A stretch of 64,000 nt of DNA, from the NCBI RefSeq assembly GCF_003018255.1, contig NZ_CP027440.1, one strand, 5' to 3'. Position 1 is the stretch's first letter, and each line of letters starts with the position of its first letter. Shown one piece after another: positions 7,365-37,892 of the stretch. Made by a program: the position numbers and the translations under genes. The notes under the pieces are model-generated. The model was given only the letters and a program-made list of their open reading frames with translations, was not told the DNA's origin and ran no database searches. Source of the DNA: Escherichia coli. GTDB lineage: Bacteria > Pseudomonadota > Gammaproteobacteria > Enterobacterales > Enterobacteriaceae.

Positions 7365-8567
7365 TTAACTGGCTTTTTTAATATGCGGAAGGTCGAACGC
7401 TTTGCGTAGCGCCCGAACAAACGCTTTATCGTGGCAGATAGTTTTGCCTGGGCTGTCAGAAAGTTTCGCCACTGGTTTACCGTTACACTCTACCAACTTA
7501 ATGACAATATTCAGGGGTTTTACCTGGGGGATATCGCAGGTCAGGCGAGTCCCAATACCAAAACTTAATTGCACGCGGGAAGAGAAGTGGCGGTATAGCT
7601 CAACCGCTTTGCGTAAATCCAGATTGTCAGAGAAAACCAGCGTTTTACTCTGTGGATCAATTCCCAGCTTTTCATAATGTGCAATGGCTTTTTCACCCCA
7701 TTCAACCGGGTCACCAGAGTCATGGCGCAGGCCCTGATAGCGACTGGCGAACTCGACACCGAAATCTCGCAGGAAAGCATCCATAGTGATGCAGTCGGTT
7801 AACGCAATGCCAAGTTGGTCGGGATACTCTTCCAGCCAGGCAGCAAGTGCAGCTCGCTGGCTGTTGGCTAGATCCGGGCTGATTTGCTGATGCGCCTGGA
7901 ACCATTCGTGTGCCTGTGTTCCCATCGGCGTGAGGGAAAGCCGACGCGCCAGATCGTAGTTGCTGGTGCCCACGAACCAGGATTCCTGTTGCAGACGTTT
8001 CACGATGGTTTCTTGTACTTCACGAGAAAAACGTCGGCGGGTGCCAAAATCCATCAGATGGAAGCGCGACATATCAAGACCGGCGGTTAATGCCGAGAAG
8101 TCGGCTAATTTGCTTTCCAGCGTGTCGAGGGCTTGCGCAACGTCGGCCTGCGGTGAGCGATAGCGATGTACCATTTCACTGATAACCGCCAGCAAAGGAA
8201 CTTCCCAGAGGATGACTTCACGCCACGGGCCGCTTAAACGAATATCCAGCTTGCCATTATCGTTGGACACGGTGACTTGTTCCGGGTTAAAGCGGAACTC
8301 GCGTAGCCAGTTAAGATAGTCGGCCTTAAAGAAAGGCAGGGCAGAGAGCCACTGATATTCATCATCCTGCAGGCGCAGGTACTGCATCGCCTGAACCTGT
8401 TCACGAATAGCATCGGCATAAATACCCAGCAGATCGTCACCTCGGCAACGAAACTCCGCCGCGACATGCACATCGTAATAGTGATGAAACACGGCTTGCT
8501 GCATATGCAACTTATAAGCATCTGTATCCAGCAACGAGTGCAGAACAGGAGAAGCGAATTGTGTCAT
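7365..8567 (-). CDS. pncB: nicotinate phosphoribosyltransferase
   Basis: ORF track 7365..8615; start at ATG giving [20 protein letters not shown]. Confidence 0.95.
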
Positions 8568-8596
8568 AGGTGCGCAGTAGCGTCCTCGTACAGGAG

Positions 8597-8614
8597 CGTT
8601 TAGTACAATAAACA
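8597..8614. promoter_or_regulatory. putative NadR operator (NAD box) in pncB promoter
   Basis: inverted repeat cGTTTA-N6-TAAACA about 30 bp upstream of pncB start; resembles TGTTTA-N6-TAAACA. Confidence 0.5.
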
Positions 8615-8832
8615 TCTTCAGGAACTGCTGGAGTATACCTTGTTTCGCAATTTATTGAACCCCGATCACACCATATGCCACCTTTCTGGTCGATGGCATT
8701 ACGCGGTGTATGTTATAAAAATGTAGCAATAAAGGCGTTTGTACCTGAAAAGATGAAGATTCTGCATAGCGCGATTTACGCAACAGGAATAGACTGAACA
8801 CCAGACTCTATAAAAGATGCTAAAGGTTATTT

Positions 8833-11445
8833 ATGACTCAACAGCCACAAGCCAAATACCGTCACGATTATCGTGCGCCGGATTACCAGATTACTGATAT
8901 TGACTTGACCTTTGACCTGGACGCGCAAAAGACGGTCGTTACCGCGGTCAGCCAGGCTGTCCGTCATGGTGCATCAGATGTTCCGCTTCGTCTCAACGGC
9001 GAAGACCTCAAACTGGTTTCTGTTTATATTAATGATGAGCCGTGGACCGCCTGGAAAGAAGAAGAGGGCGCACTGGTCATCAGTAATTTGCCGGAGCGTT
9101 TTACGCTTAAGATCGTTAATGAAATTAGCCCGGCGGCGAATACTGCGCTGGAAGGGCTTTATCAGTCAGGCGATGCGCTTTGCACCCAGTGTGAAGCCGA
9201 AGGTTTCCGCCATATTACGTATTATCTCGACCGCCCGGATGTGCTGGCGCGTTTTACCACCAAAATTATTGCCGATAAAACCAAATATCCCTTCCTGCTT
9301 TCCAACGGTAACCGCGTTGCGCAAGGTGAACTGGAAAATGGACGTCATTGGGTACGGTGGCAGGACCCGTTCCCGAAACCGTGCTACCTGTTTGCGCTGG
9401 TGGCAGGCGACTTTGATGTGCTGCGCGACACTTTCACCACGCGTTCTGGTCGCGAAGTAGCGCTGGAGCTGTATGTCGATCGTGGCAACCTTGATCGTGC
9501 GCCGTGGGCAATGACCTCGCTGAAAAACTCCATGAAATGGGATGAAGAACGCTTCGGCCTGGAGTATGACCTCGACATCTATATGATCGTCGCGGTGGAT
9601 TTCTTCAATATGGGCGCAATGGAGAATAAGGGGCTGAATATCTTTAACTCCAAATATGTGCTGGCCCGCACCGACACCGCCACCGACAAAGATTACCTCG
9701 ATATTGAACGCGTTATCGGCCATGAATATTTCCATAACTGGACCGGCAACCGTGTCACCTGTCGCGACTGGTTCCAGCTCAGTCTGAAAGAAGGTTTAAC
9801 CGTCTTCCGCGATCAGGAATTCAGCTCTGACCTTGGTTCCCGCGCGGTAAACCGTATCAATAATGTGCGCACCATGCGCGGATTGCAGTTTGCAGAAGAC
9901 GCCAGCCCGATGGCGCACCCAATTCGCCCGGATATGGTCATTGAAATGAACAACTTCTACACCCTGACCGTTTACGAGAAGGGCGCGGAAGTGATTCGTA
10001 TGATCCACACTCTGCTTGGCGAAGAAAACTTCCAGAAAGGGATGCAGCTCTATTTCGAGCGTCATGATGGTAGCGCAGCGACCTGTGACGACTTTGTGCA
10101 GGCGATGGAAGATGCGTCGAATGTCGATCTTTCCCATTTCCGCCGTTGGTACAGCCAATCCGGCACGCCGGTTGTGACTGTCAAAGACGACTACAATCCG
10201 GAAACTGAGCAGTACACCCTGACCATCAGCCAGCGCACGCCAGCTACGCCGGATCAGGCAGAAAAACAGCCGCTGCATATTCCGTTTGCCATCGAACTGT
10301 ATGATAACGAAGGCAAAGTGATCCCGTTGCAGAAAGGCGGTCATCCGGTGAATTCGGTGCTGAACGTCACCCAGGCTGAACAGACCTTTGTTTTTGATAA
10401 TGTCTACTTCCAGCCGGTGCCTGCGCTGCTGTGCGAATTCTCTGCGCCAGTGAAACTGGAATATAAGTGGAGCGATCAGCAACTGACCTTCCTGATGCGT
10501 CATGCGCGTAATGATTTCTCCCGTTGGGATGCGGCGCAAAGCCTGCTGGCAACCTACATCAAGCTAAACGTCGCCCGTCATCAGCAAGGGCAGCTGCTGT
10601 CTCTGCCGGTGCATGTGGCTGACGCTTTCCGCGCGGTGCTGCTCGATGAGAAGATTGATCCAGCGCTGGCGGCAGAAATCCTGACGCTGCCTTCTGTCAA
10701 TGAAATGGCTGAACTGTTCGATATCATCGACCCGATTGCTATTGCCGAAGTACGCGAAGCACTCACTCGTACTCTGGCGACTGAACTGGCGGATGAGCTA
10801 CTGGCTATTTACAACGCGAATTACCAGAGCGAGTACCGTGTTGAGCATGAAGATATTGCAAAACGCACTCTGCGTAATGCCTGCCTGCGCTTCCTTGCTT
10901 TTGGTGAAACGCATCTGGCTGACGTGCTGGTGAGCAAGCAATACCATGAAGCAAACAATATGACCGATGCGCTGGCAGCGCTTTCTGCGGCGGTTGCTGC
11001 ACAGCTGCCTTGCCGTGACGCGCTGATGCAGGAGTACGACGACAAGTGGCATCAGGATGGTCTGGTGATGGATAAATGGTTTATCCTGCAAGCCACCAGC
11101 CCGGCGGCGAATGTGCTGGAGACGGTGCGTGGCCTGTTGCAGCATCGCTCATTTACCATGAGCAACCCGAACCGTATTCGTTCGTTGATTGGTGCGTTTG
11201 CGGGCAGCAACCCGGCAGCGTTCCATGCCGAAGATGGCAGCGGTTACCAGTTCCTGGTGGAAATGCTTACCGACCTCAACAGCCGTAACCCGCAGGTGGC
11301 TTCACGCCTGATTGAGCCGCTGATTCGCCTGAAACGTTACGATGCCAAACGTCAGGAGAAAATGCGCGCGGCGCTGGAGCAGTTGAAAGGGCTGGAAAAT
11401 CTCTCTGGCGATCTGTACGAGAAGATAACTAAAGCACTGGCTTGA
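8833..11445 (+). CDS. pepN: aminopeptidase N (M1 family)
   Basis: 870 aa; GAMEN and HEYFHNWTGN zinc-binding motifs visible. Confidence 0.97.
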   Translation: MTQQPQAKYRHDYRAPDYQITDIDLTFDLDAQKTVVTAVSQAVRHGASDVPLRLNGEDLKLVSVYINDEPWTAWKEEEGALVISNLPERFTLKIVNEISPAANTALEGLYQSGDALCTQCEAEGFRHITYYLDRPDVLARFTTKIIADKTKYPFLLSNGNRVAQGELENGRHWVRWQDPFPKPCYLFALVAGDFDVLRDTFTTRSGREVALELYVDRGNLDRAPWAMTSLKNSMKWDEERFGLEYDLDIYMIVAVDFFNMGAMENKGLNIFNSKYVLARTDTATDKDYLDIERVIGHEYFHNWTGNRVTCRDWFQLSLKEGLTVFRDQEFSSDLGSRAVNRINNVRTMRGLQFAEDASPMAHPIRPDMVIEMNNFYTLTVYEKGAEVIRMIHTLLGEENFQKGMQLYFERHDGSAATCDDFVQAMEDASNVDLSHFRRWYSQSGTPVVTVKDDYNPETEQYTLTISQRTPATPDQAEKQPLHIPFAIELYDNEGKVIPLQKGGHPVNSVLNVTQAEQTFVFDNVYFQPVPALLCEFSAPVKLEYKWSDQQLTFLMRHARNDFSRWDAAQSLLATYIKLNVARHQQGQLLSLPVHVADAFRAVLLDEKIDPALAAEILTLPSVNEMAELFDIIDPIAIAEVREALTRTLATELADELLAIYNANYQSEYRVEHEDIAKRTLRNACLRFLAFGETHLADVLVSKQYHEANNMTDALAALSAAVAAQLPCRDALMQEYDDKWHQDGLVMDKWFILQATSPAANVLETVRGLLQHRSFTMSNPNRIRSLIGAFAGSNPAAFHAEDGSGYQFLVEMLTDLNSRNPQVASRLIEPLIRLKRYDAKRQEKMRAALEQLKGLENLSGDLYEKITKALA

Positions 11446-35837: not shown

Positions 35838-37892
35838 ATGGAACTGAAAGCGACAACGCTTGGAAAACGTCTGGCACAGCACCCTTACGATCGGGCGGTG
35901 ATCCTCAATGCCGGGATTAAAGTCTCCGGCGATCGCCACGAATACCTTATTCCTTTCAATCAATTACTGGCGATTCACTGTAAGCGCGGTCTGGTATGGG
36001 GCGAACTGGAGTTTGTACTGCCGGACGAAAAAGTGGTGCGTCTGCACGGCACCGAATGGGGCGAGACGCAGCGTTTTTACCATCATCTTGATGCTCACTG
36101 GCGGCGGTGGAGTGGCGAGATGAGCGAAATTGCGTCTGGCGTTTTACGTCAGCAACTGGATTTGATTGCCACGCGCACCGGAGAAAATAAATGGCTGACG
36201 CGTGAGCAAACCTCTGGCGTGCAGCAACAAATCCGCCAGGCTTTGTCGGCGTTACCATTGCCGGTTAACCGACTGGAAGAATTCGATAACTGCCGTGAGG
36301 CGTGGCGTAAATGTCAGGCCTGGTTGAAGGACATTGAAGGCGCTCGGTTGCAGTATAATCAGGCGTATACCGAAGCCATGCTTACCGAGTATGCGGATTT
36401 TTTCCGCCAGGTCGAGTCTTCACCGCTGAATCCGGCGCAGGCCCGGGCAGTCGTTAATGGCGAGCATTCTCTGTTAGTGCTGGCAGGTGCAGGAAGCGGA
36501 AAAACGTCGGTGCTGGTGGCCCGTGCTGGCTGGTTACTGGCGCGTGGTGAAGCGTCTCCTGAGCAAATTTTATTGCTGGCGTTTGGTCGCAAAGCCGCTG
36601 AAGAGATGCACGAGCGTATTCGAGAACGACTACATACCGAAGACATTACCGCACGCACGTTTCATGCGCTGGCGCTGCATATTATTCAGCAGGGCAGCAA
36701 AAAAGTTCCGATAGTCAGCAAACTGGAAAATGATACCGCTGCCCGTCATGAACTTTTTATTGCTGAGTGGCGCAAGCAATGCAGCGAAAAGAAAGCGCAG
36801 GCGAAGGGCTGGCGGCAATGGCTGACGGAAGAAATGCAGTGGTCAGTGCCAGAAGGTAATTTCTGGGATGATGAAAAATTACAGCGTCGTCTTGCCTCTC
36901 GCCTCGATCGCTGGGTAAGTCTGATGCGGATGCACGGTGGTGCACAGGCAGAAATGATTGCCAGTGCACCCGAAGAGATTCGCGATCTGTTCAGTAAACG
37001 TATCAAGTTGATGGCCCCGTTATTAAAAGCCTGGAAAGGTGCGCTGAAGGCAGAAAACGCTGTCGATTTTTCGGGCCTTATTCACCAGGCGATTGTGATT
37101 CTGGAGAAAGGTCGCTTTATCAGCCCGTGGAAGCATATTCTGGTTGATGAATTTCAGGATATCTCGCCGCAGCGTGCAGCGTTGTTAGCGGCATTACGCA
37201 AGCAAAATAGTCAAACGACGTTGTTCGCTGTTGGTGATGACTGGCAGGCGATTTACCGATTCAGCGGTGCGCAAATGTCGCTTACCACGGCTTTCCATGA
37301 AAACTTTGGTGAAGGTGATCGCTGTGATTTAGACACGACCTACCGTTTTAACAGTCGTATCGGTGAGGTGGCAAACAGGTTTATTCAGCAGAACCCAGGC
37401 CAGCTTAAAAAGCCGCTAAACAGCTTAACCAATGGAGACAAAAAAGCCGTCACGTTATTGGATGAGGGTCAACTTGACGCTTTGCTGGATAAACTCTCTG
37501 GTTATGCCAAACCGGAAGAGCGCATTCTGATCCTGGCGCGTTACCATCACATGAGGCCTGCCAGCCTGGAAAAAGCAGCAACACGCTGGCCGAAGTTGCA
37601 AATCGACTTTATGACCATTCATGCCAGCAAAGGGCAACAGGCGGATTACGTCATCATCGTTGGCTTGCAGGAGGGGAGTGATGGTTTTCCGGCTGCGGCG
37701 CGGGAGTCGATTATGGAAGAGGCGCTACTGCCACCGGTTGAGGATTTCCCGGACGCTGAAGAACGGCGGTTAATGTACGTGGCGCTGACCCGGGCACGCC
37801 ATCGGGTATGGGCACTGTTTAACAAAGAGAATCCCTCTCCCTTTGTGGAAATACTGAAAAATCTGGATGTGCCGGTGGCGAGAAAACCGTAA
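35838..37892 (+). CDS. helD: DNA helicase IV
   Basis: ORF track 35745..37892; start at ATG 35838 giving MELKATTLGKRLAQHPYDRAVIL; Walker A GAGSGKT. Confidence 0.93.
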   Translation: MELKATTLGKRLAQHPYDRAVILNAGIKVSGDRHEYLIPFNQLLAIHCKRGLVWGELEFVLPDEKVVRLHGTEWGETQRFYHHLDAHWRRWSGEMSEIASGVLRQQLDLIATRTGENKWLTREQTSGVQQQIRQALSALPLPVNRLEEFDNCREAWRKCQAWLKDIEGARLQYNQAYTEAMLTEYADFFRQVESSPLNPAQARAVVNGEHSLLVLAGAGSGKTSVLVARAGWLLARGEASPEQILLLAFGRKAAEEMHERIRERLHTEDITARTFHALALHIIQQGSKKVPIVSKLENDTAARHELFIAEWRKQCSEKKAQAKGWRQWLTEEMQWSVPEGNFWDDEKLQRRLASRLDRWVSLMRMHGGAQAEMIASAPEEIRDLFSKRIKLMAPLLKAWKGALKAENAVDFSGLIHQAIVILEKGRFISPWKHILVDEFQDISPQRAALLAALRKQNSQTTLFAVGDDWQAIYRFSGAQMSLTTAFHENFGEGDRCDLDTTYRFNSRIGEVANRFIQQNPGQLKKPLNSLTNGDKKAVTLLDEGQLDALLDKLSGYAKPEERILILARYHHMRPASLEKAATRWPKLQIDFMTIHASKGQQADYVIIVGLQEGSDGFPAAARESIMEEALLPPVEDFPDAEERRLMYVALTRARHRVWALFNKENPSPFVEILKNLDVPVARKP

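Follow-up and report, generated by a model that had tools for sequence, protein, structure and literature searches.

A probable NadR operator inside the transcribed leader of Escherichia coli pncB and its restricted distribution in the Enterobacteriaceae

Introduction

NadR is known to repress pncB in both Salmonella and E. coli (PMC12421817, PMC5343134). As a dimer with NAD as its corepressor it binds an 18-bp operator and represses nadB, nadA-pnuC and pncB, and when NAD is low ATP releases it from the operator (PMC12421817, PMC2330246). The consensus of this operator, the NAD box, is TGTTTA-N6-TAAACA (PMC2330245, PMC2330246), and the Proteus niaP operator reads TGTTTAGTATACTAAACA (PMC2330245). 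According to the supplement of PMC5343134, pncB is a predicted NadR target in 6 genomes, compared with 11 genomes that have NadR. The closest described systems to the locus considered here are the NAD boxes of nadB and nadA-pnuC in E. coli and Salmonella, which share with the pncB box the 18-bp palindrome, the regulator and the logic of the NAD pathway. The primary NadR footprints are reportedly to be found in the 1999 paper of Penfound & Foster and the 2005 paper of Grose et al.

In the stretch of E. coli DNA that we analysed (64 kb in all, referred to below as the window), pncB and pepN are divergently transcribed from a common spacer. Here we place a palindrome of this spacer relative to the mapped transcription starts of both genes, compare it with NadR operators of other genes, and follow it through the Enterobacteriaceae.

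Methods

A PncB query against 100,044 species genomes gave 80 Enterobacteriaceae loci, and these 80 other species together with the window make up the 81 sequences of the survey. Published start coordinates were moved onto the window by way of its 100% identity to MG1655. For the scoring of candidate operators, a symmetrised weight matrix was built from the K-12 nadA site, the two nadB sites and the Proteus niaP operator, with pncB sites excluded; it is a small matrix, of 4 independent sites. The K-12 nadA upstream region holds TGTTTAGCATATAAAACA, and the K-12 nadB upstream region holds TGTTTAGCAACTGTAACA together with the perfect box TGTTTAGTAAATTAAACA.

Results

The pncB–pepN spacer (8568-8832, 265 bp) is 100% identical to K-12 MG1655 990357-990621, and is found with at least 99% identity in 5404 of the 5425 matching E. 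coli genomes (5426 searched). The 61 bp surrounding the NAD box are 100% identical in 5406 of these 5425. The gene order, as given by the RefSeq annotation of an identical genome, is ompF, asnS, pncB (-), pepN (+), ssuB, ssuC. The nadR gene lies outside the window, its HTH-coding part being present in 5424 of the 5426 E. coli genomes, and NZ_AP018488.1 carries both the nadR HTH-coding DNA and the spacer at 100% identity. The domains of K-12 NadR are HTH_3 (residues 7-59), a cytidylyltransferase-like domain and AAA_28. Among plasmid-labelled E. coli records there were four matches to the spacer and three to nadR, probably because a large plasmid carries a piece of chromosome or because the replicon was mis-assigned. 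The features of the locus are collected in Table 1.

Table 1. Features of the pncB–pepN locus, in window coordinates
Feature	Position	Strand	Remarks
pncB CDS, nicotinate phosphoribosyltransferase, 400 aa	7365..8567	-	TIGR01514, 619 bits (equivalog)
pncB 5' leader, 58 nt	8568..8625	-	contains operator DNA and invariant GAGGA 8587-8583
Probable NadR operator (NAD box), 18 bp	8597..8614	.	CGTTTAGTACAATAAACA on plus, TGTTTATTGTACTAAACG on pncB strand
Perfect inverted-repeat core GTTTA-N6-TAAAC	8598..8613	.	single occurrence in window
pncB transcription start, 58 nt upstream of ATG	8625	-	two published datasets
pncB -10 TATACT	8632..8637	-	7 nt upstream of mapped start; sigma-70 -10 in PMC2760140
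Possible NadR half-site, GAAACA (Escherichia) / TAAACA (other box-bearing genera)	8641..8646	-	-21 to -16
pncB -35-like GTTCAAT	8654..8660	-	-35 in PMC2760140; conserved
pepN distal promoter, extended -10 TGtTATAAA	8711..8719	+	start 8726, 107-nt leader
pepN proximal promoter, -10 TAGACT	8790..8795	+	start 8802, 31-nt leader
pepN CDS, aminopeptidase N, 870 aa	8833..11445	+	TIGR02414, 1254 bits (equivalog)

The divergent pncB–pepN order is kept in 73 of the 80 loci, and the spacer is mostly of about 265 bp. In several species the 1.5 kb upstream of pncB do not contain pepN, or pepN lies about 1 kb further off (L021, which is Salmonella enterica subsp. arizonae, L007, L025, L053, L070 and L074; L052 and L069), and this displacement marks the pncB–pepN junction as a recurrent insertion point. 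Gifsy-2 occupies this junction in S. Typhimurium LT2.

The first-pass annotation of the region had placed an inverted repeat, GTTTA-N6-TAAAC, at 8597-8614. The repeat is real, with complementary arms GTTTA (8598-8602) and TAAAC (8609-8613) on either side of the 6-nt spacer GTACAA, and the positions 8597-8614 are those of the 18-bp frame, the outermost pair of which (C8597/A8614) is not complementary. In the 64-kb window 0.04 occurrences of GTTTA-N6-TAAAC would be expected, and it is found once. On the pncB strand, TGTTTATTGTACTAAACG agrees with the NadR consensus TGTTTA-N6-TAAACA at 11 of 12 positions, one half-site being imperfect (TAAACG instead of TAAACA). When one mismatch to the consensus is allowed the pncB box is the sole match in the 64 kb, against 0.05 expected. 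When two are allowed there are 6 matches in the window against 2.4 expected, and since this excess is so small the matches at that level are uninformative and only the one-mismatch site stands out.

The same annotation had proposed the palindrome as a candidate NadR box for pncB repression, and had named beforehand a weight-matrix scan and a comparison with nadA and nadB as the test that could refute it. With the 4-site matrix the pncB box scored 15.4 bits and ranked first of the approximately 64,000 window positions. The true sites scored 12.2-26.9 bits when each was left out in turn, a range that includes the 15.4 bits of the pncB box, and 15 of its 18 bases are common to the perfect nadB box TGTTTAGTAAATTAAACA. 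The runner-up in the window (36988-37005, 13.1 bits) lies inside a 715-aa ORF and was taken as a chance match. When the matrix was applied to 328,740 positions (about 329 kb) around pncB in the 80 other species, all 64 hits of at least 15.4 bits lay upstream of pncB. The identification was thus upheld by the consensus match and by the matrix rank, and it agrees with the literature on NadR and pncB. Intergenic DNA often contains short AT-rich palindromes, and at up to two mismatches the enrichment is only modest (6 against 2.4), so it has to be considered that this AT-rich inverted repeat arose by chance or is bound by another regulator, with no role for NadR. The box is however the sole match when no more than one mismatch is allowed, is unchanged in more than 10 genera, belongs to a gene known to be regulated by NadR and is the top match under a matrix built independently of it, and we therefore give a chance origin or a foreign regulator next to no probability.

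The position of the box relative to the pncB promoter could be fixed from published starts. In the Kim et al. 2012 supplement, the pncB start is at 989637 on the minus strand, with 180 reads and a 58-nt leader, and Mendoza-Vargas et al. 2009 (PMC2760140) give a pncB start at -58, flagged as 'Known'. The sigma-70 elements assigned to pncB in PMC2760140 are the -35 GGGGTTCAA and the -10 GGTATACT, with a spacer of 17. The -10 hexamer TATACT is invariant across the compared genera, including those that have no box. Relative to this start the NAD box spans +12 to +29 of the pncB transcript, which places it downstream of the promoter and upstream of the coding sequence. The earlier description of the box as lying just upstream of pncB is therefore correct with respect to the ATG, which is 30-47 nt away, and does not hold with respect to the promoter. 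A sigma-70 consensus scan of 8450-8950 found no promoter, the pncB promoter having been missed because of its weak -35. No matching start coordinates for the locus were present in the Ettwiller 2016 supplement, and the portion of the Kim 2012 supplement used here gave no pncB start for K. pneumoniae.

Two other candidate elements in the spacer were rejected. A CRP-like TGTGA seen by eye at 8670-8666 has a right half, TTCAA, that matches TCACA at only 2 of 5 positions, and its centre is at about -37.5, not -41.5; the inverted repeat ATGCCA-N13-TGGCAT (8675-8699) is not conserved. A 416-aa pncB ORF, starting from an in-frame ATG at 8615 (-) within the NAD box, was also considered. The distance from the box to the annotated ATG is 1 nt shorter in about 20 species (-46 instead of -47), which breaks the 416-aa frame, and in the transcript only 10 nt separate the 5' end from the ATG at 8615. 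Since the frame is broken in these species and the ATG is so near to the transcript end, the N-terminal extension was rejected. In K. pneumoniae pncB is annotated with 1239 nt, as against 1203 nt in E. coli, possibly through an over-extension of the same kind.

The rest of the region had been assigned to the pepN promoter. It does hold pepN promoters, whose starts (8726 and 8802) both follow a -10-like hexamer by 7 nt, and in addition it holds the whole of the pncB promoter (8632-8660). In the Kim et al. 2012 supplement, the distal pepN start is at 989738 on the plus strand with 12 reads (window 8726) and the proximal start at 989814 on the plus strand with 7 reads (window 8802). The block 8710-8729 around the distal -10 is conserved, and the proximal -10 TAGACT is kept in 36 of 38 aligned species. 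The pncB start and the distal pepN start are 101 bp apart (8625 to 8726); the promoters stand back to back, and that of pncB lies between the NAD box and those of pepN.

Four pepN starts are listed in that supplement, the other two being at 8833 (7 reads) and 8617 (5 reads). The plus-strand start at 8617 is 8 nt after TACAAT (8604-8609), which lies within the NAD-box spacer. It may represent an antisense or divergent transcript, giving pepN a 216-nt leader, that NadR would occlude, or it may be noise. If the box served as a divergent operator for both genes, with NadR controlling pepN through it as well, this weak start, with a -10 that bound NadR could occlude, would be the point in favour of such an arrangement. 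Against it, the pepN starts with 12 and 7 reads in the same source lie 112 and 188 bp beyond the box edge at 8614, the whole pncB promoter intervenes, and the 5 reads are near noise. Furthermore, pepN is not among the NadR targets in the cited NadR literature (PMC2330245, PMC12421817, PMC5343134). Control of pepN through the box is thus very unlikely. Since the pncB promoter stands between the box and the pepN promoters, we regard the box as the operator of pncB and not as a shared one, and the pepN promoters, whose starts are at least 112 bp from the box edge at 8614, are expected to be independent of it.

Further observations concern the pepN leader. Two blocks on the plus strand, 8745-8765 (CTGAAAAGATGAAGATTCTGC) and 8781-8797 (CAACAGGAATAGACTGA), are nearly invariant in 38 species, and within them only the -10 TAGACT has an assigned function. 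A 14-codon uORF at 8751-8795 was rejected, its ATG being ATA in 5 species and its stop TGA being TGG in most. An Rfam search of the region returned only a sub-threshold match to the PepN thermometer and a chance fragment of the Lysine riboswitch. The thermometer match, to RF02779 at 8735-8862 (+), is full-length and weak (21.3 bits against a gathering threshold of 83; E-value 0.09-0.31), and with a score below that threshold the pepN leader was not assigned to RF02779.

The survey of 81 Enterobacteriaceae sequences showed that the box is kept in some lineages and missing from others. In 55 of the 81, TGTTTATTGTACTAAACG or a variant of it in the spacer lies at -47/-46 from the ATG, and the carriers include Escherichia, Salmonella, Citrobacter, Enterobacter, Kluyvera, Lelliottia, Kosakonia, Phytobacter and Pluralibacter. 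The box is conserved across more than 10 genera, and each of its columns is 80-100% conserved in a 38-species alignment. Nine of the 81 sequences (Klebsiella, Raoultella and Trabulsiella) read TTGATGGAAACG at the E. coli position, where they are thus without a box, and have TGTTCAATATATTAAACT some 155 nt ahead of the ATG. The ancestral GTTCAAT (-35) element has been incorporated into this palindrome, next to which about 62 bp have been inserted (L057, L061, L055, L034), and the palindrome has 10 of 12 consensus matches and 18.3 bits under the matrix. It looks like a case of NadR operator turnover and not the same site as the E. coli box, and a new promoter further upstream (TTGTGG-16-TATATT) possibly accompanies it. 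A perfect box at -197 occurs in one sequence, and 16 of the 81 have no box at all, among them Atlantibacter, Mangrovibacter, Franconibacter, Siccibacter, Pseudescherichia and Superficieibacter. This patchy distribution agrees with the count of 6 against 11 genomes in the supplement of PMC5343134.

The box-less species keep the promoter GGTATACTCC and the leader AAACGCTCC...GAGGA...GCGCACC-ATG. In these species the stretch homologous to the E. coli box reads TTGATGGAAACG, with the differences falling on half-site bases. The mismatch G8597 (TAAACG) is invariant, and is part of an older, shared leader element. The GAGGA (8583-8587, -) is invariant in 24 of 24 aligned sequences, box-less ones included, and is 14-15 nt from the AUG, a long way off for a Shine-Dalgarno element. 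In the stretch between the two (8568-8582) a 3-bp stem, (C/U)GC...GC(G/A), might shorten this distance, and has no folding or covariation support. The older conserved leader with its distant GAGGA may provide an extra, NadR-independent layer of control.

Since the box lies inside a transcribed and very conserved leader, conservation alone cannot separate a role in DNA from a role in RNA. The 18-mer could be constrained mainly as RNA of the pncB leader, for example in translational control, with its likeness to a NAD box being secondary. This would be in keeping with the transcription of the box itself, with the conservation of AAACGCTCC...GAGGA...GCGCACC even where there is no box, including the G8597 mismatch as a part of the shared element, and with the unusual distance of GAGGA from the AUG. 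The leader, however, folds no better than shuffled sequence (z = +0.95), and the fold of the leader alignment has 4 pairs with zero compensatory changes. Moreover, in species without the box it is precisely the half-site bases that differ, the remainder of the leader being kept, a pattern that fits a DNA operator laid over a pre-existing leader, and the pncB box is singled out by a matrix derived from independent operators. We consider a mainly RNA-based constraint on the 18-mer highly improbable.

A possible auxiliary contact for NadR was noted in the spacer of the pncB promoter. The half-site at 8641-8646 is 2 nt before GTATACT and about 45 bp from the centre of the box. All 54 box-bearing sequences have the half-site (T/G)AAACA and none of the 26 box-less ones does, an association that is phylogenetically non-independent, and the box-less sequences read TAATCA or similar at this position. 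Common ancestry may be all that lies behind the co-occurrence of half-site and box. As a second operator, the full 18-mer of the promoter spacer, TCAATAAATTGCGAAACA, was rejected, scoring only 4.1 bits, and the half-site was retained as a lead. A more elaborate scheme, in which pncB repression would use two NadR contacts, the auxiliary half-site having co-evolved with the box for cooperative binding or looping, with NadR-independent control through the leader in addition, appears unlikely.

Discussion

We conclude that the palindrome at 8597-8614 is very probably the NadR operator of E. coli pncB. To this reading the present analysis contributes the sequence match, the matrix rank, the placement relative to the transcription start, the conservation, and the presence in E. 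coli of a nadR that encodes an HTH domain; that NadR represses pncB, with NAD as corepressor, is taken from the literature. When NAD is plentiful, a NadR dimer would bind the TGTTTA-N6-TAAACA element at +12 to +29, where it would get in the way of RNA polymerase, either at its downstream DNA contacts or at promoter escape, and pncB transcription would be lowered. As NAD falls, NadR would leave the DNA and niacin salvage would be derepressed. The steric or roadblock mode in this sequence of events is one that we infer.

In E. coli and Salmonella, the operator makes niacin salvage through pncB responsive to the NAD level of the cell. That there is a NadR site at pncB is already known, and the regulation is of the textbook kind and not a discovery. 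The first-pass annotation recovered the site correctly from the letters alone, and its importance beyond annotation is small. The useful additions made here are the explicit placement at +12 to +29 and the survey of 81 sequences. The survey shows that the pncB operator is lineage-restricted, being kept, rebuilt elsewhere or absent, and provides a tidy example of regulon turnover with no new mechanism.

In comparison with the boxes of nadA and nadB, that of pncB has the same preference for G(T/C)A after the first half-site, and differs in having one imperfect half-site (TAAACG). The arrangements also differ. At K-12 nadA the box lies at approximately -54 to -37 relative to a start with weak support (5 reads), whereas the pncB box is within the transcribed region. 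At nadB there are two boxes 74 bp apart, one of which ends 7 nt before the ATG, whereas pncB has one full box and at most a half-site. The TGTTCAATATATTAAACT element of Klebsiella, Raoultella and Trabulsiella is likewise a NAD-box-like palindrome at the same gene, at a position other than that of the E. coli box. On the opposite side of the spacer, the RNA thermometer of the Yersinia pepN 5'-UTR (RF02779) occupies the same position as the E. coli match, namely the pepN leader and first codons, but the E. coli alignment is carried by the SD and coding bases and has many non-canonical pairs, and the matter is separate from the NadR finding. The nearest counterpart of all is the annotated pncB promoter and NadR site of K-12 (RegulonDB / RegPrecise NadR regulog; Gerasimova & Gelfand 2005), which is the same locus. 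There is no substantive difference between the two, since the spacers are identical throughout, the start at -58 was already known and pncB is counted in the regulog.
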